Positions 3,969-28,618 of a DNA stretch of 64,000 bases are shown here, in pieces (the first letter of the stretch is position 1; every line of letters begins with the position of its first letter). The stretch lies in IMG/VR virus record IMGVR_UViG_3300028833_000069. One strand, written 5' to 3'. The stretch is from a virus (lineage: Duplodnaviria; Heunggongvirae; Uroviricota; Caudoviricetes). The position numbers and the translations under genes are program-made. The notes under the pieces are model-generated. The model made no database searches. It saw only the letters and a program-made list of their open reading frames with translations, and had not been told where the DNA came from.

Positions 3969-4531
3969 TGCTTACTAATGACAAATTTTATTGCTTTTGT
4001 AAAGGACCTTTAGGTAATTGGCATCATTCTGATATACATTACTGTGGTAATACTTTCTTTTCTTCTGAGCAACTGTTTATGTGTTTAAAGGCTAGATTCT
4101 TTAAAGACAATGAAGCAGTTGTACATATCTTACAAGCAAAAGATAACAAAGAAGCAAAAGCTATTGGAAGAGCAGTTAAGCACTTTGATGAAGAAAAGTG
4201 GTCACAATATAAAGAAAGCTTAATGCTTACAGCTTTATATTACAAAGCAATCTATGACAGGGATTTCTTTGAAATCTTAATGTCTGAAGAAACTAAGGAT
4301 AAATTATTTGTTGAATGTAATCCTGATGATAAAATTTGGGCAATTGGTCTTGGAGAAGATGATGAGAGAGTTCTTGATGAGAAAAACTGGAAAGGTACTA
4401 ATTTATTAGGAAACTGTTTAACTCATCTTGCTAATCATCTTAGAGAAGGTAATTGTGACTTATTATTTATTATTAAGGATTACAATGCAAAGAAACAACT
4501 AATTGTAGCTAAGACAAATGATAATCAGTAA
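3968..4531 (+). CDS. NADAR (YbiA/DUF1768) family protein
   Basis: LGNWH, FFSSEQLFMCLKARFF, AKAIGRAVKHFD, VECNPDDKIWAIG, GTNLLG. Confidence 0.9.
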   Translation: MLTNDKFYCFCKGPLGNWHHSDIHYCGNTFFSSEQLFMCLKARFFKDNEAVVHILQAKDNKEAKAIGRAVKHFDEEKWSQYKESLMLTALYYKAIYDRDFFEILMSEETKDKLFVECNPDDKIWAIGLGEDDERVLDEKNWKGTNLLGNCLTHLANHLREGNCDLLFIIKDYNAKKQLIVAKTNDNQ

Positions 4532-5372
4532 AATTATTCAACATAGTGTAACAGGTGGTGAGGACACTCTCACCACCTTACCACTTACTAATTTTTGCTC
4601 TTTAGATGAAGTTCCTTTTGAGAATATAAAGAGAACTTTATTTTCTGAATTACAAGGAGCAATGTTCAATGATAAGGTAGGTACATATAGAAATTTCTTT
4701 CGTACTAGTAATTCAAATGTACTGCAAGGTTTTGAGTTTAATTACAATGGAGTAAATCTTGGAATTATACAAACTACTCTTTGGAGTGCTAAATGTATGT
4801 ATACTAAACAAGAATCTAATCTTAGAAAGAATTTTCTTTCTTTAGTAACTCCACCTGTTGCTATTAACATTATACCTGGTAATAGAGTATCTACTAGAAG
4901 ATGTAGAAATGAAAATATTCCTAGGGAAAGATATATGAGTTTTTCTGATACATATTCAGATAATGTTGTAGTTGTAGCTATACGTAATCATAGAAAGGAA
5001 ATAATTGATTTAGCAAATAAATTGATTAGCAAGATACCTGGAGTTAGTACAATTGATGATATAATCATTGATGATTTTGATCTTTATTTAAAGGTTGTAC
5101 CTACAAATGATTTAAAAAATAAAGATTACATTGGTGGAGGTAATTATATTCAAAGATTTACTGTTTATAACTCTCTTGTGATTGCAGCATTTTGTTATAT
5201 GTCTTGTATTCCTGAAGAAAGAGAAGATGTTAGTCTTTTAGACTTTCCTGTTTTAATGTTTTATGCAGGTACTTCTAATGAAGAAATACAGATATTAAAA
5301 AGTTTTCAGAAAATATTACCATTATCTCAGGTTATATATGTTGCTCAAAAAGTTCAAACACCTAATAAGTGA
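4518..5372 (+). CDS. hypothetical protein
   Basis: 284-aa ORF in an operon-like array; no recognised motif. Confidence 0.7.
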   Translation: MIISKIIQHSVTGGEDTLTTLPLTNFCSLDEVPFENIKRTLFSELQGAMFNDKVGTYRNFFRTSNSNVLQGFEFNYNGVNLGIIQTTLWSAKCMYTKQESNLRKNFLSLVTPPVAINIIPGNRVSTRRCRNENIPRERYMSFSDTYSDNVVVVAIRNHRKEIIDLANKLISKIPGVSTIDDIIIDDFDLYLKVVPTNDLKNKDYIGGGNYIQRFTVYNSLVIAAFCYMSCIPEEREDVSLLDFPVLMFYAGTSNEEIQILKSFQKILPLSQVIYVAQKVQTPNK

Positions 5373-19709: not shown

Positions 19710-20735
19710 ATGACATTTACTATTCCAAAAACAGTAAAGAAAGTTACTAGAGAGTTTCTTTTGGAACACAACACAGAAGAAACCTATATGCAAACTTATC
19801 TTGGTGTTCCTGTTAAAAAAGGCTTATTTATAAGTCCAATTAGACATGATAAAAGACCAACTGCTTCTTTCTTTAGAAGTAGAGATGGGGCTTTACTGTT
19901 TCATGATTTTGGAATAGGTTTTAAAGCAGACTTTGTAGGAGTGGTTAGACAATTGTTTAACCTCTCTTACAATCAAGCTTTAAATAAAATAGCTTCTGAT
20001 TTTGGACTTAACAATGGACAGGAGCAATGCATACCTAAAATTAAAGTTAGTGTATGTGAGGAAACAATTACTGCACACGAAGCAGCACAAATCCAAATAG
20101 AAATGCAAGATTTTACACAAAAAGAATTAGATTGGTGGGCATCTTATGGTGTTACACCAGAAACTTTGAGAAAGTACAGAGTTTATTCTTGTAAAAATGT
20201 ATTTCTAAATGGTAATTACTTTACTAGTAGCACACCAACTAGTCCAGCATTTGGCTATTTTGGTGGTCTAAAAGAAGGTAATGAAATCTGGAAAATTTAT
20301 TTTCCTAAAAGAAAAATGTATAGATTTATTAGTAATTGGAATGGTACAATGCTACAGGGAAGTCAGCACCTTCCTAAAAGTGGTAATTTCCTAGTTATTA
20401 CTAAATCTATGAAAGATGTTATGGCTCTCCATGAATTTGGTATACCAGCTATAGCACCTGGCAGTGAAACATCTTTTGTTACTAATCAACAACTAGACCG
20501 TTTAAAAAGTAGATTTAAGGAAATTATTGTTTTCTATGATAATGATTTACCAGGCATTATGGGAATGAGAAAAATCAAGAAACAACATCCTGAATTAAAA
20601 TTTGTATGGATTCCTAGAAGTTATGGTGCAAAAGATTTCTCTGACTTATATAAAAAATTTGGAAAGGATGTCGTGAGAGATATGCTAATCCAATTTACAA
20701 AAAGATATAGCAATGGATGCAAAGACATTAAATGA
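19710..20735 (+). CDS. DNA primase
   Basis: Cys-less zinc-finger-like SPIRHDKRPTASF...FHDFG; Toprim ITKSMKD, YDNDLPG, KDFSD. Confidence 0.85.
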   Translation: MTFTIPKTVKKVTREFLLEHNTEETYMQTYLGVPVKKGLFISPIRHDKRPTASFFRSRDGALLFHDFGIGFKADFVGVVRQLFNLSYNQALNKIASDFGLNNGQEQCIPKIKVSVCEETITAHEAAQIQIEMQDFTQKELDWWASYGVTPETLRKYRVYSCKNVFLNGNYFTSSTPTSPAFGYFGGLKEGNEIWKIYFPKRKMYRFISNWNGTMLQGSQHLPKSGNFLVITKSMKDVMALHEFGIPAIAPGSETSFVTNQQLDRLKSRFKEIIVFYDNDLPGIMGMRKIKKQHPELKFVWIPRSYGAKDFSDLYKKFGKDVVRDMLIQFTKRYSNGCKDIK

Positions 20736-21054
20736 TAACTTTTTTTCAACTGGGAGACTCCTTTCTGGTAAACTGGAAGATAAGCTTGAAATATTGAGAG
20801 CAGTATGTTTCTTAACTTTTATGATAAATAAACAGTTTAAGAATAACTTTACAGCTCTTGATGTTTTAGAGAAAGTAGTATATAAGAAAAAATTGATTGA
20901 TACAAATGGATTTGATGCTTTTCTTATTACTATTGGAATCATAAGTCAAGACCTGCTTTATGGCTGTGAAGATGTTCCAAATCCAGGTTATTCAAATACA
21001 GAAGAGTGTTGTAGAAAAATACAGCAGCTGTGTTTACAGTGGGCTCCCTTTTAA
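20713..21054 (+). CDS. hypothetical protein
   Basis: 113-aa ORF overlapping the primase stop. Confidence 0.65.
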   Translation: MDAKTLNDNFFSTGRLLSGKLEDKLEILRAVCFLTFMINKQFKNNFTALDVLEKVVYKKKLIDTNGFDAFLITIGIISQDLLYGCEDVPNPGYSNTEECCRKIQQLCLQWAPF

Positions 21055-21060
21055 TGAAGT

Positions 21061-21651
21061 ATGAAACAGCTTAAAGTATCTCAAAGAAGAGGGTACTCTG
21101 CTGAACATGCATTTGAAGACCTTAATTTTAATGTTTTAGATCCTCTTATTAAAGGAGCTAATTCAACAAGGTCTTGGATAAGGGCAGGCAAACCTGTTCC
21201 TGGGAGTGATGATTTTTTGGATTGGGCAGAAGCTCAGTTAGCATTCAAAACCAGAGGTCAAGTTGGATATGGTTGTTATATTGTAATTGATAAATATATG
21301 AAAGATGTAAGGATTAGACCTTATGCTGTTTATGAAGTACATAATAATGATCATAGAAGATGGAAAACTGTACATCAGGTTAGAACCGATGATTTTGAAA
21401 TTGTCTCCAATGATGAAAAGACATTGGAAGCTGTTACTATAAATAGTATCGGCAAAGTTATAGGTGAGTATGACACAAAATCAGAAGCAATGGTAGCTGC
21501 AAAAAGGTATATTGCTGAAAACAAGAAGAATTGTTCTATTGTTAGAGTAAAGATTACTGATGAAGCACCAATAGAAGCTTATTGTGTTTATAAACCTTCT
21601 TCAAATGCTAAGATAGGAACTTTTGTTGCTTTTGGATATGTCGATGAGTGA
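21061..21651 (+). CDS. hypothetical protein
   Basis: 196-aa ORF. Confidence 0.75.
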   Translation: MKQLKVSQRRGYSAEHAFEDLNFNVLDPLIKGANSTRSWIRAGKPVPGSDDFLDWAEAQLAFKTRGQVGYGCYIVIDKYMKDVRIRPYAVYEVHNNDHRRWKTVHQVRTDDFEIVSNDEKTLEAVTINSIGKVIGEYDTKSEAMVAAKRYIAENKKNCSIVRVKITDEAPIEAYCVYKPSSNAKIGTFVAFGYVDE

Positions 21652-21922
21652 AGATAAAGATATGGTTATTAAGCCAGAACATTATAATCAAAATGGATTA
21701 CAAGCCATTGATGTAATGTTGGCTTTTAATGGCAAAGAAAGTGTTAAAGAACACTGTGCCAATACTGCATTAAAATATCTTCTAAGAAGAACCCATAAAT
21801 TTAATTCCTCAGAAGATATTCATAAGTGCATATGGTACCTATTAAAGTACCTACAAATTGAATGTGGCAATGAAGATGTTGTCACATTTGTTCAAGGCTT
21901 TTTACAAAGTCAAATTCATTAA
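21623..21922 (+). CDS. DUF3310 (SaV-like) protein; true start probably a downstream Met
   Basis: PEHYNQNGLQAID, ALKYLLR, EDIHKCIWYL. Confidence 0.85.
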   Translation: MLLLDMSMSEDKDMVIKPEHYNQNGLQAIDVMLAFNGKESVKEHCANTALKYLLRRTHKFNSSEDIHKCIWYLLKYLQIECGNEDVVTFVQGFLQSQIH

Positions 21923-21945: not shown

Positions 21946-22551
21946 ATGGAAGTAAGAAATGTGATTATCGTAAGTAATGCAGCTAACAGAAGATATACCC
22001 TCCAGACTGGTGCAGAGACTCTTGGTCAATTGAAGGCTGATATGAGAGAGGCTCATATTGATTATGATGGTATGACCTTTATGGAAGGTCTGACTAAGAC
22101 TGAACTTCTCCAAGATAGCAGCTTGCTGCCTAGAGATGTTGTTAGAGGTGAGGGTACTACTAATGAGTTAGTATTCTTGTTGACTGTTGCTAACAAGAAG
22201 ATTAAATCTGGTGCTGATTATGCTTCTCTTAGAGCAACTGTTGGTGCTAGTAGAGAAATGAAGGAGTATATCCAGAAGAATTATGGTAGAAACTACACCA
22301 ATGTTGGTGCTAGTGTTCTTGAAGCAGTTGTTGCTCATTTTGCAAAGAAGGCACAACCTGCTGTTGCTGCTACTGGTGCTTGCACTAGTGCAACTGCTGT
22401 AAAGAAGTTGGCTGATGCTTTGAAGCATAATGGTTATCTGACCACTTCTCAGTATAATGATGTAGTAGCTTCTTTGTCTGCTGCTCCTGCTGATGAGAAG
22501 ATTGGTTCTTATACCAAGTCTGAAATTGATGCTATTGTAAATAGCCTCTAA
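21946..22551 (+). CDS. ubiquitin-like (beta-grasp) protein precursor with a C-terminal extension after Gly89
   Basis: Residues 1-89 follow the Ub pattern (VIIVS / RYTLQ / TLGQLKADM helix / LLQDSSLLP / LVFLLT) and end KKIKSG; directly upstream of E2, JAB and E1 genes. Confidence 0.62.
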   Translation: MEVRNVIIVSNAANRRYTLQTGAETLGQLKADMREAHIDYDGMTFMEGLTKTELLQDSSLLPRDVVRGEGTTNELVFLLTVANKKIKSGADYASLRATVGASREMKEYIQKNYGRNYTNVGASVLEAVVAHFAKKAQPAVAATGACTSATAVKKLADALKHNGYLTTSQYNDVVASLSAAPADEKIGSYTKSEIDAIVNSL

Positions 22552-22561
22552 AAATTAACAT

Positions 22562-22602
22562 GGTTAGGAGGGAGAAATCTCTCCTAACCCTTTTTATTTT
22601 TT
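22562..22602 (+). terminator. strong intrinsic terminator between the Ubl and E2 genes
   Basis: 12-bp stem GGTTAGGAGGGA/TCTCTCCTAACC with a GAAA tetraloop, then CTTTTTATTTTTT. Confidence 0.85.
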
Positions 22603-22611
22603 CTAATCTAT

Positions 22612-23967
22612 ATGACAAACTTAAAACGGTTAGAAAAGGAATTCATACTTCCTTATCTAAAAAAATCTGATGAACAAGTAAATAAAGTATATCAGGTTTT
22701 TCAAGACTATTTTGGTAAAGATAAGGTTGATTTACAAATGAATTACAAGTATGGGGCAAGTGATGAGGCTGCATTGGTAAAGAGAAACACTGATGATGAT
22801 AGAGCAGTACTTGCAAGAAAAAGTTTATTTCATAATAGAGGACCTGCTAATTTTAATTTTAATGTAAGAGATTGTTCTGTTAGTAGATTTGACAGTCTTA
22901 GCTCTTCTTTAGTAGAAAAATACTTTGAAGAGTTTTTAAAATTAGATAAAGATACAATAAATGCAAAGATAGAATTAACAATGCGTGATTTACCTTTGTA
23001 TGCAATCATTGTACATTTCCCAACAGTTGTAATTAGAAATGAGCATGATAAAACTCATGAAACAAGTCATTTCTATATTAAAATTGAATTGTTAAGTTCT
23101 GGAAAAATGTATAGTGGTTTTCTTGTTAAAAGATCCCATTTTACAAAAAATGAACTAGAAGTAGGATATATGCATTCTCACTGTCCAAGTGGTTCTTGTA
23201 ATCCTACACAAATGTGGTCTCATAGTTGTCTTGGTTCAGGTCCAATACAAAGAACAGAAGCAAGATTAAATAGTAACTGTGATTTGGATATGTGGATGTT
23301 GTTTTGTAATGAACTTGAAAGATATATCCAAGTAGAATCATTGGATGGTGGACCATACATCAGAATGTCTTCTATTCCAGAAACAACTAGTACAGGTAAT
23401 TCATTGTATAATTACCAAAATGCAAAAGATGTAAAAGCTGATACAAATAAAAGTCTTTATAGAGGAATGAGAAATGATATATATCCCAGACTGATTAAGC
23501 CTTTTATTGAACAGTATGTTGCTTCTTTTAATTTACCATTTAGAAGAGTTGACAATGTTATTAAACCAGCATTTACTTATGATGAGTTTTTAATTAACAT
23601 AAGTCAAGCTCTTATTACTTATCTTAATGGGCTTCCTATAAACCAAGTTGATGTTTCCTATATAAAAGATAATATCCTTGTTGAGGCCGCAATGGTCAAT
23701 GAGGTTATAAATCTAGTTAATCAAAACAGAAGTAATAGAAATAACTGGAGAAGTTATGAAAGATATATAGGATATGAAATTGGAGTTTTTCATGGAGAAC
23801 CCATTACTTTTCAAATAGTAGATAATGTACAAGTTCAAGAAAGAAATAATCATTTTAGGATACTTCATCCAAAATATGCATTACCAATTCTTCAACTTAT
23901 TATAGATTTATTAAATAGCGAGTATGGCAGAAACACTCAAACTAATCAAACAAGACTCTACATATAA
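22612..23967 (+). CDS. prokaryotic E2/UBC-like protein
   Basis: IIVHFP...FYIKIEL strands; MHSH...SCLG equivalent to the E2 HPN...CL flap (putative catalytic Cys206); ESLDGGPY; operon context. Confidence 0.65.
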   Translation: MTNLKRLEKEFILPYLKKSDEQVNKVYQVFQDYFGKDKVDLQMNYKYGASDEAALVKRNTDDDRAVLARKSLFHNRGPANFNFNVRDCSVSRFDSLSSSLVEKYFEEFLKLDKDTINAKIELTMRDLPLYAIIVHFPTVVIRNEHDKTHETSHFYIKIELLSSGKMYSGFLVKRSHFTKNELEVGYMHSHCPSGSCNPTQMWSHSCLGSGPIQRTEARLNSNCDLDMWMLFCNELERYIQVESLDGGPYIRMSSIPETTSTGNSLYNYQNAKDVKADTNKSLYRGMRNDIYPRLIKPFIEQYVASFNLPFRRVDNVIKPAFTYDEFLINISQALITYLNGLPINQVDVSYIKDNILVEAAMVNEVINLVNQNRSNRNNWRSYERYIGYEIGVFHGEPITFQIVDNVQVQERNNHFRILHPKYALPILQLIIDLLNSEYGRNTQTNQTRLYI

Positions 23968-26602
23968 AATTGTAATTCCTGAAAATGTAGAGGAAAAGAT
24001 AAGATTTCTTTGTGCACAAGTGCATGAAGTAGAATGGTCAGGAATATTGTTCTACAAAAAGTCTGGAACAATGGAAGATGGTAGTTTAGTAATCACATGT
24101 ACTGATATATTCCCAATGGATATTGGTACAGGCACTTATACAGAATTTGATAATTCACCAGATGCTGTAAGTTACATGTGTGATCATCCTGAATTACTTG
24201 CTCCAGATGTTTATAATGGACTCATCCATTAAGTGTGAGTGGATGTAAAACTGGGTGAACTGCTGGAAACTCCTTGATAAGGGACAATCAGCAACCAAGC
24301 CTTGAGTACACTCAAGGAAGGCTCAACGACTACCTGAGCAGTAAAGTCTGCTTAATAACAGGAAGTAGGTATAAGTAGTGTTATACTGAAAAAGTGCCCA
24401 GCTCCTCATTGTGAGGATGATGATATAGTCTAAACAACTTTATATTTATCATAACAAGGAAGATTTATTCTTTGTAAAAACTTATTATATTTTCTTTCAT
24501 AAAAGAAAGGAAGATTATCATAGCATTTAAATAATCTTACAACATCTTTTTTATTAGCAAAAGTTAATCTTGGTATTGAGTCATAACTTTTTATATGACT
24601 TTCAGAAATATTAAGATGTTTACATACACCTTTTAAAAATTCAGTTGTACCTCTAAAAGAAATATATAAGGAATAATCTGCTGTTAAATATCCGTTTTGA
24701 TTTTGCTTTAACCTATCATCAATTGATACTGAACCATCCCCATCAAAGTATCCAATGATAAAAGCATCTCTATATTGAACTGGAATATTTTCTAGTATAT
24801 TTCCCATTGTTAAACTTTTATTAAATCCAATGCCATATTTCATTATGGATTCAGCTAAAATTGGACTAGATAAAGTATACCTTATATGATGTACTTCTTT
24901 GCCAAAAGGAGAGGTTCTTCTGATTTCTTGTAATTTGTGTGTATTTCCTATTTCAGATTTTATAAATTCTAATACTGCTTTATCTTCATATTTAATTGTA
25001 ATTGTTAAGGTAATTGTAGTGTTAGTTTTTATAAGTGCTCCATCTGCTGCAATAAAGCCTAATATATAAGCTTTTGCATAAGAGTCTATATTATCAAAGT
25101 AATGTAGATTTCCTCTATGTGGATGACATTCATACTCTGGAAATTTAGCTTTTACTAAATTCATAACAGCTTGCTGATATTCTCCAAGAATATTTGCAAT
25201 TTGTGTAAGATTATAACCTTCTTTTAATAATCTTCCAATTTCTTCAGTTTTAGATTCTAATTTTAATTTTTGCATAACATATTATATTTTTAAATTATAT
25301 GCAAAATTACTACAAATTAATATTTAAAAAAAGAAGAAAGTATAAAAAGTAATTTAAGAAGTTGATAGTCCAATGAGAGGTCTAATCTCATTTGGATTTG
25401 TAATGTCACATAACAATATGGCAACATTCTTTAGTGGAACTGATACATCCACCCTTCTTGAAGAAGGAAAAGATAGAAATCATTTTGTATCCCTTATTGT
25501 AAATAATGCTGGTACATATACAGCAGCAATTACAAGAAAGGCTGTTAAGGATTTGACAATTAGTGGTACTCTTAAATATAAGAGTTTTGATGATACTGAG
25601 ATTGAACTTGGTGAACTTGAACCAGTTAAAACTCAATCCACTGTTGTGGAATATTTTATGCTTGAAGTAGAGAAGCATGATGCCCAAGTAAGTTTGAAGA
25701 AAGAACTTGAAGATGCATTTTCTTCCACATTTGAAGTCCTCAAAACAAAAGTTCCTGCTGATAATGCTAAACAAATTAGAAGTAATTTTGTAGAAAGCGT
25801 TGTTAACAGTCTTATTAGAGATGTAACTGATATTAAATTTGAGGAAACTAAGAAGAGATTGGATGATATTAGGGAATCTAAAAAGAAGAAGGTAACTTCT
25901 CCTTATGGTAATTATCCTTTTACAGGAGCTTATCCTAATTCTTATCCATCTACTCAAAGAACACCTGCTGTTGGTGGTGGTTATGCTGGTGCTACTAGCC
26001 CTAGCAACTTTGCAAGAAGTAAATCACAAATTTACATACCTGGTAAAGGTTGGTGTGACAAAGATACTGAAGAAGTAATAACCCCAACCAGTCAGTTACT
26101 TAATAAAGGTTACACTCCTAAAGTTGTACATTCAGAACCGCTTGGGCCCTCTGAACCTGGTGAACTCAATTTAGATTGGGAAGATGCTGGTTCTGCTTGG
26201 GCCCATTGCAGGCAAGAAATGACAGAGGAAGGTGTCAAGAGCTCTGAAAAAACAGAGAAAGAAATTAAAGAAAAGATACAGGAACTAACTGATAGTGCAC
26301 TGTATTATTTGTTAACTGGAGATATAGACTGTCCAAATGTAATTTGTGATTATGATAGTTGGGCAGCACAAACTGGATATATATATTCTAGACAGTTTAA
26401 AACTTTGGATGATTTTAAGAGATTTGCAGATATGCAAGTTGATTATATCTATGAAGTTGCAAATGATAAACTGGATGGTTTAACTGATGATATTTCTAAT
26501 GACTCTGAAGCATTTATGCAAACAGTTGCGGATGAGTTAAAGAAACTTCCTCAGAATGTATATATTAAGCATTATATATCTCAAATAGAAAGATTAGCTT
26601 AA
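23924..26602 (+). CDS. JAB/MPN+ metallo-isopeptidase, spliced: join(23924..24229,25406..26602), 500 aa
   Basis: Splicing restores GLIH|SHNNMATFFSGTD = HxH-x7-S-x2-D JAMM motif; upstream EWSGILFY supplies the Glu. Confidence 0.88.
24430..25275 (-). CDS. double-motif LAGLIDADG homing endonuclease with an N-terminal HTH, antisense within the intron P9 region
   Basis: YILGFIAADG and FIIGYFDGDG; LTQIANILG HTH; stop is TAG. Confidence 0.9.
   Translation of the reverse strand: MQKLKLESKTEEIGRLLKEGYNLTQIANILGEYQQAVMNLVKAKFPEYECHPHRGNLHYFDNIDSYAKAYILGFIAADGALIKTNTTITLTITIKYEDKAVLEFIKSEIGNTHKLQEIRRTSPFGKEVHHIRYTLSSPILAESIMKYGIGFNKSLTMGNILENIPVQYRDAFIIGYFDGDGSVSIDDRLKQNQNGYLTADYSLYISFRGTTEFLKGVCKHLNISESHIKSYDSIPRLTFANKKDVVRLFKCYDNLPFFYERKYNKFLQRINLPCYDKYKVV
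25300..25309 (-). promoter_or_regulatory. putative Bacteroidetes -7 promoter element for the antisense endonuclease
   Basis: Minus-strand TAATTTTGCA matches TAnnTTTG, ~25 nt upstream of the ATG; no clear -33 TTTG. Confidence 0.5.
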
Positions 26603-26603
26603 T

Positions 26604-27908
26604 ATGGAAGAAATAGATGCTACTTTACTAAGTGTAGAAGATATTATTAACCTATATCCAGAAGCTGAATTACCTGCTATTGTAGAAGCACATAATGCTG
26701 CACAGTCTGTACAAACCGTACAGGCTGTAGCAGCTGATGCTGCTGGTCCTGCTAGTTCTAGTGAAAATAATACTGCTGATCCACAGGTTGCAGGTATACT
26801 TCAAGAAATTAGAGAAGCTTTGAGTGAAAACCCATCTCATGTAGAAACTCCTTCTAGTGATACTGTTGAAACTACCCAAAATGCTGCTAGACGAACTCAT
26901 AGAAGAAGAGGAGCAGCAACTACAACTGAAACAGTTCCAGAAACAACACAAGTAGTTTCTTTACCACAAGAAATTGCAGAAGCAGCTATTGCTTCAGGTG
27001 AGGTTGCAAATGCAGTAATGGATCTTAATGCAACTATTGAAGAAACATTAGAAAATAATAATACTTCTGAAGATAATGCAGGTGGTGTTGTAGGTGGTAT
27101 TGTAAATGATGCAGCTCAAACTGTAGAACAACCTCATACACCACAAGTTACTGTTGAAGAGCAACATAACACTTTTGACAATATTTCTGGTGACAATATT
27201 GCAACAGATATTGGTAGTAGATTTAGTGGTGCTGCATGGTTTGAAGCTATGCAAAATACTAAAATTATTGTAGCAGGTTGTGGTGGTATAGGTAGTTGGT
27301 TTACTTTATTAGCTGCAAGAGCTAACCCTGAAAGTATTCAACTGTTTGATGCAGATAATGTTGAATCTGCAAATCTTAGTGGTCAATTATTTGGACTAGA
27401 ACATGTAGGAATGAACAAAGCAAATGCTTTAGCAAGTATTGTTCAAAATTATTGTAACTATAACAGAATAGAAGTATTTAATATATTCTATACTGGTAGA
27501 ACAAGACAAGTTGGTCCTATAATGGTTTGTGGTTTTGATAATATGGCTGCTAGAAAGGTATATTTCAATAAGTGGAAAGAGTATGCTCAATTCCATACTA
27601 ATGAAAGATGCCTTTATATTGATGGTCGTTTGAATGCAGAACAATTTCAAGTGTTCTGTATAACAGGTGATAGACCTGATCTTATGGCTAAATATGAAGA
27701 AGATTGGTTGTTTGATGATTCAGAAGCAGATGGAGTACTTTGTTCTTACAAACAAACTTCATATTGTGCTGCTATGATTGGTGGAATGATGAACAATCTT
27801 CTTGTAAACTTTATCTTTAATGGTGGCAATAATATCTTGTATCCTAGAGATTTGCCATTCTTAACAGTATATGAAGCTGATCAATTATTCTTGAGAACTA
27901 GAGTATGA
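26604..27908 (+). CDS. ThiF/E1-like activating enzyme with a ~195-aa low-complexity N-terminal extension
   Basis: IVAGCGGIGS, DADNVESANLSGQ, GFDNMAAR, IDGRL; candidate catalytic Cys in LCSYKQT. Confidence 0.9.
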   Translation: MEEIDATLLSVEDIINLYPEAELPAIVEAHNAAQSVQTVQAVAADAAGPASSSENNTADPQVAGILQEIREALSENPSHVETPSSDTVETTQNAARRTHRRRGAATTTETVPETTQVVSLPQEIAEAAIASGEVANAVMDLNATIEETLENNNTSEDNAGGVVGGIVNDAAQTVEQPHTPQVTVEEQHNTFDNISGDNIATDIGSRFSGAAWFEAMQNTKIIVAGCGGIGSWFTLLAARANPESIQLFDADNVESANLSGQLFGLEHVGMNKANALASIVQNYCNYNRIEVFNIFYTGRTRQVGPIMVCGFDNMAARKVYFNKWKEYAQFHTNERCLYIDGRLNAEQFQVFCITGDRPDLMAKYEEDWLFDDSEADGVLCSYKQTSYCAAMIGGMMNNLLVNFIFNGGNNILYPRDLPFLTVYEADQLFLRTRV

Positions 27909-28618
27909 CACAATTTGAAAAAAACTTAGCAGAATGCTATCAATATGTAAGAGCATTAAATGCTTCAGTATATGCTATACCTACTTTCAAGATTGCAAAT
28001 TGTAATGCTCTGTATTTTCAAGTAAAGAAACAAGGAAATGTTTATGAATTTCCATTGTTTTTATATGGTTCTTGGAAAGTATTTAAATCTAATTACAATA
28101 ATTTATCATCTGATAGATTGATAATGAGAGCTTCTTTTAATAAAGATAATCCTATAACAATATCTGCTAATACCTCTCTTCTTACTTATATGAATAATAA
28201 GTATAGAGCAGACTATAATTTAGTATGTTTAAAGTTAGGAGATAAATTCTTTTATGTAGCTCCAGGTTTAATTTTAGATGAAAATCTTAATATACTGTTT
28301 ATGTATACCATTAAAGTACCTACTGGAGATATTACTGTTTATATAAACAATTCTTTATATAAAAATAGTGATACCTTCAGTAAGATGCTTACTGGAAAAG
28401 CTTTTTCATATTTAGCAGTAAATAGTGTAAGTACAGAGGATTTTGGATTTACTATCCCTAAAATTGTGGTTAGTGATGATATAAATGAATTTCTTGTACT
28501 ACCTAATAAAGAACTTAAAAAAGATTCTATTGATGAGTTTGAAGCTAAATGTAACAAACTTATCAGAGAAAATTTTATGACAGCTTTTAATTTAAAATAT
28601 CCAAGTGCACAAGATTAA
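27905..28618 (+). CDS. hypothetical protein coupled to E1
   Basis: 237-aa ORF, ATGA overlap with the E1 stop. Confidence 0.7.
   Translation: MTQFEKNLAECYQYVRALNASVYAIPTFKIANCNALYFQVKKQGNVYEFPLFLYGSWKVFKSNYNNLSSDRLIMRASFNKDNPITISANTSLLTYMNNKYRADYNLVCLKLGDKFFYVAPGLILDENLNILFMYTIKVPTGDITVYINNSLYKNSDTFSKMLTGKAFSYLAVNSVSTEDFGFTIPKIVVSDDINEFLVLPNKELKKDSIDEFEAKCNKLIRENFMTAFNLKYPSAQD

Follow-up and report, generated by a model that had tools for sequence, protein, structure and literature searches.

Operons that encode an E1, an E2, a JAB peptidase and a ubiquitin-like protein (Ubl) are currently seen as bacterial weapons against phages. BilABCD, the ISG15-like anti-phage system of bacteria (types I and II), has the operon order Ubl-E2-JAB-E1 (10.1101/2023.09.26.559546). 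Its Ubl, BilA, carries overhangs of 2–9 aa and is pre-processed by BilC (bioRxiv 10.1101/2023.09.04.556158 and 10.1101/2023.09.26.559546). Bub (6E/DUF6527) operons use Tyr/Ser oxyesters and work without catalytic cysteines (PMC11601596). In type II CBASS there is no Ubl gene, and what the E1-E2 fusion Cap2 conjugates is the CD-NTase.

Here the same logic is found on the phage side. The window, which is the whole stretch of 64,000 nucleotides analysed, belongs to a large crAss-like gut phage. A tightly packed set of five genes lies on its plus strand at 21946–28618, amid the genes for DNA replication. It encodes a Ubl, an E2-like protein, a JAB peptidase, a ThiF-type E1 and a fifth protein. The earlier note had reported consecutive Ubl, E2-like, JAB and E1 genes among the replication genes and taken them as a four-gene cassette. 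This observation is confirmed and the four genes are present in that order, but the fifth gene (27905–28618) had been overlooked. The features are as follows.

21946–22212, +, gene 1, Ubl domain (aa 1–89): beta-grasp and flexible tail ending in KKIKSG89; Gly89 codon at 22210–22212
22213–22551, +, gene 1, C-terminal helical domain (aa 90–201): joined to the Ubl in this phage, encoded by a gene of its own in three relatives
22612–23967, +, gene 2, E2-like protein (451 aa): UBC-like core at aa ~1–45 and ~125–257; Cys206 codon at 23227–23229
23924–24229, +, gene 3, JAB/JAMM peptidase, exon 1 (aa 1–102): includes the Glu of HEVEWSG and ends in ...GLIH; aligns with the N-terminus of crAss001 gp77
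24230–25405, +, group I intron (1176 nt; Rfam RF00028): interrupts the JAMM motif between H and SH
24430–25275, −, LAGLIDADG homing endonuclease ORF (281 aa), antisense within the intron (Pfam and PHROG)
25406–26602, +, gene 3, JAB/JAMM peptidase, exon 2 (aa 103–500): SHNNMATFFSGTD and a C-terminal region of ~350 aa; aligned to crAss001 gp77 and cr128_1
26604–27908, +, gene 4, minimal ThiF-type E1 (434 aa): adenylation domain at aa ~205–434; candidate catalytic Cys380, codon at 27741–27743
27905–28618, +, gene 5 (237 aa): start overlaps the E1 stop (ATGA); homologue of crAss001 gp75

The gene order is identical to that of BilABCD. Both sets have a Ubl glycine that needs exposure by the JAB enzyme (predicted for the phage), conserved cysteines in E1 and E2, and no separate E3. 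The phage set is located in a replication module, whereas Bil is located in bacterial defence islands, and an obligatory fifth gene is present only in the phage set. No sequence similarity to BilABCD is detectable beyond the ThiF fold. Unlike Bub operons, the phage set has invariant cysteines in E1 (Cys380) and in the E2-like protein (Cys206), and no Pfam match to the DUF6527/BubE serine protease is seen in the cassette. The E1, E2 and JAB chemistry resembles that of type II CBASS Cap2/Cap3, but the phage set has a Ubl gene. PADLOC Cap2 'E1-E2' models hit the phage E1 at 1.8e-12 in its nucleotide-binding part, over aa 213–281 only. The PRTRC cassette, with its ParB-related and ThiF-related proteins, was considered and rejected, as TIGR03736 scores 28.9 bits (cut-off 144.75) and TIGR03735 12.6 bits (cut-off 101.8). 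No published description of the phage cassette was found. Among Ubl conjugation operons of the Bil type, the cassette represents a new form, borne by a phage, and it is likely that the five genes constitute a phage-encoded module for ubiquitin-like protein conjugation, expressed with the replication genes.

Inheritance of the cassette

Related loci were collected by a search seeded with the E1 alignment. The order Ubl-E2-JAB-E1-gene 5 is kept in 75 of 75 untruncated loci with enough flanking DNA. Of the 83 loci that were scored, 82 have gene 5 immediately after the E1. The cultured phage crAss001 has the same order (gp79–gp75), the cassette genes are likewise co-inherited in cr128_1, and the layout is identical in the Flavobacterium phage FpV4. 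Co-conservation in related phages, on which the earlier note had made its reading depend, is thus seen. The syntenic cassette is conserved near-universally within the replication module over Bacteroides, Flavobacterium and uncultured lineages. The cassette is passed on as a block.

Among 185,579 species genomes, the E1 family is represented by 13 loci. Eleven of them, those with enough sequence, contain other cassette genes, and the remaining two are bare fragments. The genomic context is phage-like in both loci examined among the 13. In this set, the E1 family occurs in crAss-like replication modules only. A fixed five-gene Ubl set is thus located amid phage replication genes, and therefore crAss-like phages probably run a protein-tagging pathway which has hitherto been studied only as bacterial anti-phage defence.

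This distribution also bears on the biological role. The main role of the cassette could be counter-defence, in which the JAB peptidase strips the Ubl or CD-NTase conjugates that Bil or type II CBASS of the host has made, or host immune proteins are tagged and disabled by the phage Ubl, E1 and E2. Every characterised bacterial E1/E2/JAB set does act in phage-host conflict (PMC11601596; 10.1101/2023.09.26.559546; 10.1101/2023.09.04.556158). However, near-universal synteny in the replication module across lineages resembles a core function, genes for anti-defence tend to be patchy and accessory, and the Ubl, E1 and E2 would be superfluous for deconjugation alone. We consider counter-defence an unlikely main role; as a statement on role, it is compatible with the chemistry of a conjugation module.

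Predicted products of the five genes

The N-terminal domain of gene 1 has the beta-grasp fold of ubiquitin-like modifiers, based on structure prediction and fold matches. The great majority of the matches are Ubls of the protein-modifier or adaptor kind. The tail KKI(K/R)SG is invariant among relatives, including Gly89, which is located in a low-pLDDT tail; the tail of FpV4 is KQVKSGG. The rest of gene 1 is predicted to form helices at pLDDT 80–90, with a low-confidence linker at 137–146. Within it, T118, L159 and Y189 are conserved, as is a SPYSDxEID-like motif at the C-terminus. Gene 1 had been described earlier as a beta-grasp protein ending in KKIKSG89 with a C-terminal extension; this reading stands, and the extension proves to be a conserved helical domain.

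In three relatives (L015, L025 and L047), gene 1 is split by a free-standing HNH-type homing endonuclease gene two codons past ...SG. The Ubl reading frame there stops two residues after ...SG, an ATG of its own is present for the helical half, and the two halves are still conserved. An unrecognised intron interrupting these Ubl genes was considered and rejected. No Rfam match to a group I intron is seen at the split even at E up to 5, and the endonuclease ORF occupies nearly the whole insert, so that a true gene split is the better reading. The natural split just past SG supports the predicted maturation point at Gly89. The Ubl ending in SG plus two residues mirrors the overhangs of BilA and its pre-processing by BilC. 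A difference from Bil is that the phage Ubl consists of a single beta-grasp with a helical domain attached. An analogy can also be drawn to the ubiquitin-extension proteins of eukaryotes (ubiquitin-ribosomal protein fusions), where the ubiquitin fold stands ahead of an unrelated domain and a peptidase cuts at the junction glycine. For the phage, this cleavage is predicted, and no family was identified for the C-terminal domain of gene 1.

The core of the gene 2 product looks UBC-like, and one of its cysteines is invariant. UBC, UEV and RWD folds prevail in three independent searches, at modest fold scores. With Foldseek, no PDB match to the model has an E-value below 0.4, and the AFDB clusters search gave weak rows only, including UBC-core, RING and RNF14 entries. 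The order of elements is that of E2 topology: an N-terminal helix, a four-strand meander, the HxH motif, a short helix, the cysteine and a helix. Y186-x-H188-S189-H190 and Cys206 are invariant in 196 of 196 relatives. The conserved cysteine is thus located downstream of an HPN-like motif, as in E2 proteins, with a spacing of 16 residues. The corresponding spacing in UbcH5 is 8 residues. The His motif precedes the cysteine, whereas BilB has a CEHH motif with the His after the Cys. Also different from Bil is the size of 451 aa, with a 75-aa helical insert (aa 50–124) and a conserved C-terminal domain of ~170 aa (aa ~280–451).

Sequence profiles give gene 2 no link to E2 proteins. Pfam yields no match, Prok-E2_D (PF14460) included, for the window protein and 44 family members, and no significant link to known E2s is seen in the PDB profile search or in PADLOC and NCBIfam. 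An hhalign comparison of the 196-sequence alignment with 11 Bacteroidota Prok-E2_D proteins has a probability of 0.05; the only stretch aligned pairs C206 with the Cys-Met-Gly motif of Prok-E2_D, presumed to be catalytic. Atlas features connect the protein with PF14460 at 0.88–0.89, which is a lead only. No PF14460 match is seen in G001, the record nearest to the genome of the window. The family is large, with about 3,200 clusters at 50% identity. The earlier claim of an E2-like protein with HSH...Cys206 thus holds for the invariant residues, and the E2 call stands on modest fold matches.

Conjugation does not always need an E2, as the archaeal SAMP/UbaA/HvJAMM1 system has none. The cassette could accordingly be an E2-independent Ubl/E1/JAB module, sampylation-like or TtuB-like, in which gene 2 encodes a Cys/His peptidase, a scaffold or a substrate receptor that carries no Ubl thioester. 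The missing profile link and the modest fold scores are consistent with this, and the invariant His190...Cys206 pair could equally serve a peptidase. Against it stand the prevalence of UBC/UEV/RWD folds and the E2-like element order, as well as the position of gene 2 at the E2 slot of the Bil order and the fact that it is never parted from the other cassette genes. An E2-independent module appears improbable, and an E2 role of gene 2 is probable. A complex prediction of E1 aa 200–434, Ubl aa 1–89 and E2-like aa 1–257 scored 0.00 for the E2-like partner without controls, and carries no weight either way on binding.

Gene 3 is predicted to encode a JAMM metallopeptidase, complete only once a group I intron is spliced out. 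The intron cuts the reading frame between His102 and Ser103, and its first codon is TAA. RF00028 scores 61 bits (cut-off 50) with the core at 24202–24449. The P1 pairing CAUCCAU/GUGGAUG sets the 5' splice site after U24229. The predicted junction equals the sequence of the intron-less homologues (crAss001 gp77 and cr128_1), and the product predicted from joining 24229 to 25406 contains HEVEWSG and the metal-binding motif HSHx7SxxD at aa 102–115 (H102-S-H104...S112..D115). This agrees with the JAB peptidase, JAMM motif after splicing, proposed earlier. On these two homologues, Pfam Prok-JAB reaches 20.4 and 23.3 bits, just below the cut-off of 25. The gene is broken at the same point in three further loci (L006, L027 and L079), of which L006 and L079 have an Rfam intron match. 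The endonuclease ORF in the intron matches LAGLIDADG_3 (1.5e-08) and LAGLIDADG_1 (2.9e-05) in Pfam and the endonuclease PHROG 4645 (2.7e-38).

As judged from its residues, gene 4 encodes an adenylating enzyme of the E1 type, in which the ATP/Mg residues are all present and one cysteine is invariant. Pfam ThiF scores 60.7 bits (cut-off 28.1), in line with the ThiF/E1 enzyme named in the earlier note, and relatives in PDB include MccB, UBA5, ThiF, NEDD8 E1 and Cap2. Invariant in 39 relatives are R206, F207, G225, G227, G228, D249, D251, K272, D312, R317 and C380-S-x-K-Q-T, which include the glycine motif G225-x-G227-G228, the Arg finger and the Mg-binding Asp. The candidate catalytic C380 is located 68 residues past the Mg-binding Asp, and profile alignments to solved E1s end before that region. 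The N-terminal ~200 aa are of low complexity and missing in most relatives, the shortest of which have 228–251 aa. BilD has the architecture IAD-AAD-CYS, whereas the phage E1 is a single adenylation domain of ~230 aa.

Gene 5 matches crAss001 gp75 at 9e-07 (BLASTP). It has no match in Pfam, PHROG, PADLOC or NCBIfam. Atlas leads to a ConA-like lectin were rejected, since the shared features are too few to trust.

Proposed pathway of conjugation

The JAB peptidase would cut the gene 1 precursor after Gly89 and so separate the Ubl from the helical domain. Gly89 would then be adenylated by the E1, which probably forms a homodimer as ThiF and MoeB do, and Cys380 of the E1 may carry the Ubl as a thioester. 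The Ubl would be handed on to Cys206 of the E2-like protein and finally attached to a lysine on a protein of the phage or the host. The target might be chosen by the conserved C-terminal domain of the E2-like protein or by the gene 5 product. The JAB peptidase could reverse the modification. The scheme of the earlier note, with clipping after Gly89, ligation by E1 and E2 and a possible removal of host-added Ubls by the JAB peptidase, is supported in part.

That the Ubl instead acts like ThiS, MoaD or QbsE, with the JAB peptidase exposing its glycine and the ThiF enzyme producing a thiocarboxylate or a modified small molecule or nucleic acid while no protein is tagged, is very improbable. At all loci examined, the cassette and its neighbourhood lack a rhodanese, a cysteine desulfurase, a ThiG/MoaE-type partner and any other biosynthetic gene, a UBC-like protein with an invariant Cys belongs to every set, and the Ubl fold matches are overwhelmingly of the modifier or adaptor type.

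The conjugation module can be specified further. It is quite possible, and proposed here tentatively, that crAss-like phages have a complete thioester cascade of their own, which covalently tags specific proteins of the host or the phage while the genome is replicated. Targets would be selected by the C-terminal domain of the oversized E2 itself or by the gene 5 product, and the Ubl would be supplied as a cleavable fusion that also frees a second helical effector. If true, a ubiquitination-type pathway would for the first time be shown to serve a bacterial virus, not to oppose one.

The cassette is a near-universal and vertically inherited part of the replication module in a very large phage clade, and in the human gut, crAss-like phages belong to the most abundant viruses. 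If the cassette is active, what the phage must tag to replicate becomes directly testable in cultured systems: crAss001 with Bacteroides intestinalis, DAC15 with B. thetaiotaomicron, and FpV4 with Flavobacterium psychrophilum. The minimal single-domain E1 and the atypical E2 may reflect a simpler ancestral hand-off from E1 to E2. In public records, the cassette genes are labelled 'thiamine biosynthesis', 'metalloprotease' or 'hypothetical'.

Gene layout and co-inheritance

The window is AT-rich (GC about 32%), and its proteins match those of Crassvirales (crAss001, DAC15, cr128_1, and others), with 27–45% identity for genes 1 and 2. The same proteins are present on contigs of 162–169 kb, which indicates that the window belongs to a large crAss-like phage. 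The cassette is composed of five tightly packed genes, all on the plus strand.

Genes of the cassette in the window
21946–22551, plus strand: gene 1, ubiquitin-like protein (Ubl) precursor
22612–23967, plus strand: gene 2, E2-like protein
23924–26602, plus strand: gene 3, JAB peptidase, split by an intron; 44-nt overlap with gene 2
26604–27908, plus strand: gene 4, E1; starts one base past the end of gene 3
27905–28618, plus strand: gene 5; its ATG overlaps the stop codon of gene 4 (ATGA)

As the earlier note stated, the cassette lies among replication genes: upstream of it is a primase gene (19710–20735), and downstream come genes for a PD-(D/E)XK exonuclease and an anaerobic ribonucleotide reductase. 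In the window, the primase and Ubl genes are separated by three ORFs at 20713–21922 (of 113 aa, 196 aa, and, for a DUF3310 protein, 99 aa), whereas the Ubl gene directly follows the primase gene in crAss001 and cr128_1. The crAss001 cassette corresponds to gp79–gp75, where the annotation calls gp77 a metalloprotease and gp76 ThiF. RNA-seq of crAss001 revealed three transcription modules that track the direction of the genes, and replication functions belong to the middle class; gp76–79 are not mentioned in that paper (PMC8375218). From where it lies, the cassette would be expected to form a middle-class transcription unit.

The earlier note described four genes. All four are present, but the fifth gene belongs to the cassette too, based on co-inheritance. 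Five protein profiles were scanned over 83 loci (80 IMG/VR loci collected via the E1 alignment, crAss001, cr128_1, and the window). The genes are co-conserved in related phages: 75 loci contain all five on one strand in the order Ubl-E2-JAB-E1-gene 5, and the remaining eight are cut by contig ends. Since E1 similarity was used to collect the loci and many come from one gut dataset, they are not independent samples; even so, their genes 1, 2, and 5 are only 23–45% identical to those of the window. In Flavobacterium phage FpV4, the order is primase, UDG, Ubl, E2-like protein, JAB, a 228-aa E1, and a fifth ORF without a match.

The E1 family was also searched for in 185,579 prokaryotic species, each represented by one genome. 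Only 13 loci were found, all on MAG contigs; 11 of them have enough sequence and contain further cassette genes, with the order unchanged, and two are bare fragments. On a 373-kb contig of a Puia sp. MAG, the cassette lies between genes for a DnaB-type helicase, a primase, a PD-(D/E)XK nuclease, and a family A DNA polymerase. On a 640-kb contig of a Bacilli MAG, its neighbours are genes for a UDG and for phage-like amidases. Given this rarity and these phage-like contexts, the E1 family looks phage-restricted. The cassettes in these very long "bacterial" contigs could stem from a crAss-like element, either integrated or episomal, or from chimeric assembly.

The Ubl precursor and its split forms

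Gene 1 was modelled with AlphaFold2 on an alignment of 36 relatives (mean pLDDT 81). Residues 4–81 show the beta-beta-alpha-beta...beta order typical of beta-grasp proteins, which upholds the beta-grasp assignment once made by eye. Residues 83–89 (NKKIKSG) have pLDDT below 50, and five helices with pLDDT 80–90 follow. K84, I86, S88, and G89 are invariant in the family, and variability begins directly after them. Across related loci the Ubl tail is KKI[KR]SG, usually followed by Ala; FpV4 has KQVKSGG at this position. The proposed end of the fold at KKIKSG89 agrees with the start of variability, but what had been called an Ala-rich extension corresponds to the five helices. Its conserved positions and conserved terminal motif rule out a mere spacer.

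Gene 1 is split in three IMG/VR contigs.

Split gene 1 regions
L015, 4521–5477: HNH-type homing endonuclease ORF, decayed
L025, 4243–5459: free-standing HNH-type homing endonuclease
L047, 4153–5469: free-standing HNH-type homing endonuclease

Here the Ubl ORF ends with KKIKSG-KF-stop or KKIRSG-IC-stop, two codons past SG, and the endonuclease ORF starts within a few bases of the stop. The helical domain is a separate ORF with its own ATG (MNTNNMTR...) and retains the C-terminal motif. The Rfam search found no intron at these splits, and the endonuclease ORF occupies almost the whole insert, which indicates that each half functions as a polypeptide of its own. In this form, the Ubl half resembles a classical Ubl precursor that has an overhang of two residues. 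Some homologues of BilA, the Ubl of the bacterial Bil operon, likewise have overhangs of 2–9 residues (10.1101/2023.09.04.556158), and BilC exposes the glycine of BilA (10.1101/2023.09.26.559546). Gly89 is probably the mature C-terminus of the phage Ubl, and the split genes are the strongest indirect evidence for it in this analysis.

In L025, the endonuclease ORF starts with ATG GAA ATT TGA AAG (4526–4540), where TGA stands in place of the Trp that its relatives conserve in their MEIW/MENW start; either the endonuclease is decaying and this is a nonsense mutation, or that phage reads TGA as Trp. L070 (4531–5085) and L076 (4564–5118) have a free-standing HNH-type endonuclease ORF (MVEIWRPIQGYEGLYEVSNLG...) between intact Ubl and E2-like genes.

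The intron in the JAB gene

Exon 1 of gene 3 ends with GLIH immediately followed by TAA, and exon 2 starts with SHNNMATFFSGTD. The intron-less homologues, crAss001 gp77 and that of cr128_1, read continuously GLIHSHNNMATFFSGTD, which places the splice junction at 24229|25406. The Rfam group I intron model matches 24202–24449 (61 bits). CAUCCAU pairs with GUGGAUG to form P1, whose last pair, at the 5' splice site, is the usual U-G. The spliced protein of 500 residues contains both the Glu and the HxH-x7-S-x2-D elements, so the JAMM motif is restored by splicing as predicted. The Pfam Prok-JAB model gives these two intron-less homologues 20.4 and 23.3 bits, slightly below the 25-bit cut-off.

Intron-related features at the JAB site
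Window, 24430–25275, minus strand: LAGLIDADG endonuclease ORF inside the intron, opposite to gene 3
L006, 5510–5756: Rfam group I intron, 76 bits
L079, 5606–5865: Rfam group I intron, 66 bits
L027, 5880–7054: interruption at the same point

The interruption of the JAB gene at the same point in three other crAss-like contigs (L006, L027, and L079) indicates that the intron recurs at the JAMM site. It is absent from 75 loci, and the nearest relative of the window (L003, a 169-kb contig) has an intron-less JAB gene. Downstream of the cassette in L047 (10676–10919) lies a further group I intron (84.8 bits with Rfam).

The E1, the E2-like protein and the proposed pathway

Pfam ThiF spans aa 209–408 of gene 4. 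R206 (the Arg finger), G225, G227, G228, D249, D251, and K272 are invariant, as are D312 and R317 in GFDNMxAR and C380 in C-S-x-K-Q-T, in line with the ThiF/E1 assignment. The solved relatives (MccB, UBA5, PaaA, TcdA, ThiF, NEDD8 E1, UBA1/UBA6, and Cap2) all align through the nucleotide-binding half only. Cys380 is 68 residues past the Mg-binding Asp, a spacing close to the one that the cysteine on the crossover loop of ThiF and MoeB has; by its position it is a candidate counterpart. Ala, Glu, Thr, and Val abound in the first ~200 residues (26604–27203). Most relatives measure 228–330 aa and lack this extension; among those aligned, only the closest (P0181, with 85% identity over the E1 domain) has a comparably long Ala-rich one, and the N-terminal additions of a few others are shorter. 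Since most relatives do without it, the phage E1 is much simpler than BilD, the E1 of Bil.

The AlphaFold2 model of gene 2 (pLDDT 81) starts with a long helix (3–34), a strand (39–43), and a helical insert (50–124), followed by a three-strand meander (130–178). Then come the motif Y186-M-H-S-H190, a short helix, and Cys206 directly ahead of helix 211–221. More helices up to 253, a disordered linker, and a mixed alpha/beta domain (280–451) complete the protein. Read by eye, the predicted order of helix, four strands, His motif, Cys, and helices appears to be that of UBC enzymes. When the ESM Atlas is searched by shape, UQ_con and Prok-E2_D come directly behind the protein's own clusters, with TM by target of 0.45 and 0.44, and in the feature search viral Prok-E2_D clusters are at the top of the named ones (0.88–0.89). 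At a 50% identity level, the family numbers 3,238 clusters that match with E of 1e-3 or lower. In 196 sequences, C206, N143, Y186, S189, H190, G208, G210, E242, S243, G246, and P248 are 100% invariant, a pattern that fits an enzyme active site centred on the cysteine, and some positions of the C-terminal domain are at least 90% conserved. Model, searches, and invariant Cys206 favour the E2 assignment, but sequence methods, including hhalign against Prok-E2_D, did not confirm it, and an E2-independent pathway is the rival at this point. The sole stretch aligned by hhalign is C206-L-G against Cys-Met-Gly of Prok-E2_D, presumably its catalytic site. Prok-E2_D proteins themselves (about 245 aa, APFFN...G.VCMG) are seen in nine of 401 sampled Bacteroidota genomes (L097–L107).

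The Ubl, JAB, and E1 very probably constitute a processing-and-activation module. A full Ubl-conjugation cascade is the best explanation of the cassette and somewhat probable; the other rivals are a role mainly in counter-defence and one as a sulfur carrier. The observation of a putative conjugation cassette on a phage stands, and its interpretation is supported in part. The invariant cysteines of the phage E1 and E2-like protein differ from the oxyester-based bacterial Bub pathway (PMC11601596). The cassette is a phage-borne form of known Ubl conjugation systems and new as such; a full-text search on crAss phages with ThiF or ubiquitin found no description of it, with subscription journals mostly outside its coverage and an earlier mention possible. 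A 2026 virome preprint remarks in passing on a family of gut-phage proteins whose fold resembles that of UBA5 (10.64898/2026.03.05.709809).
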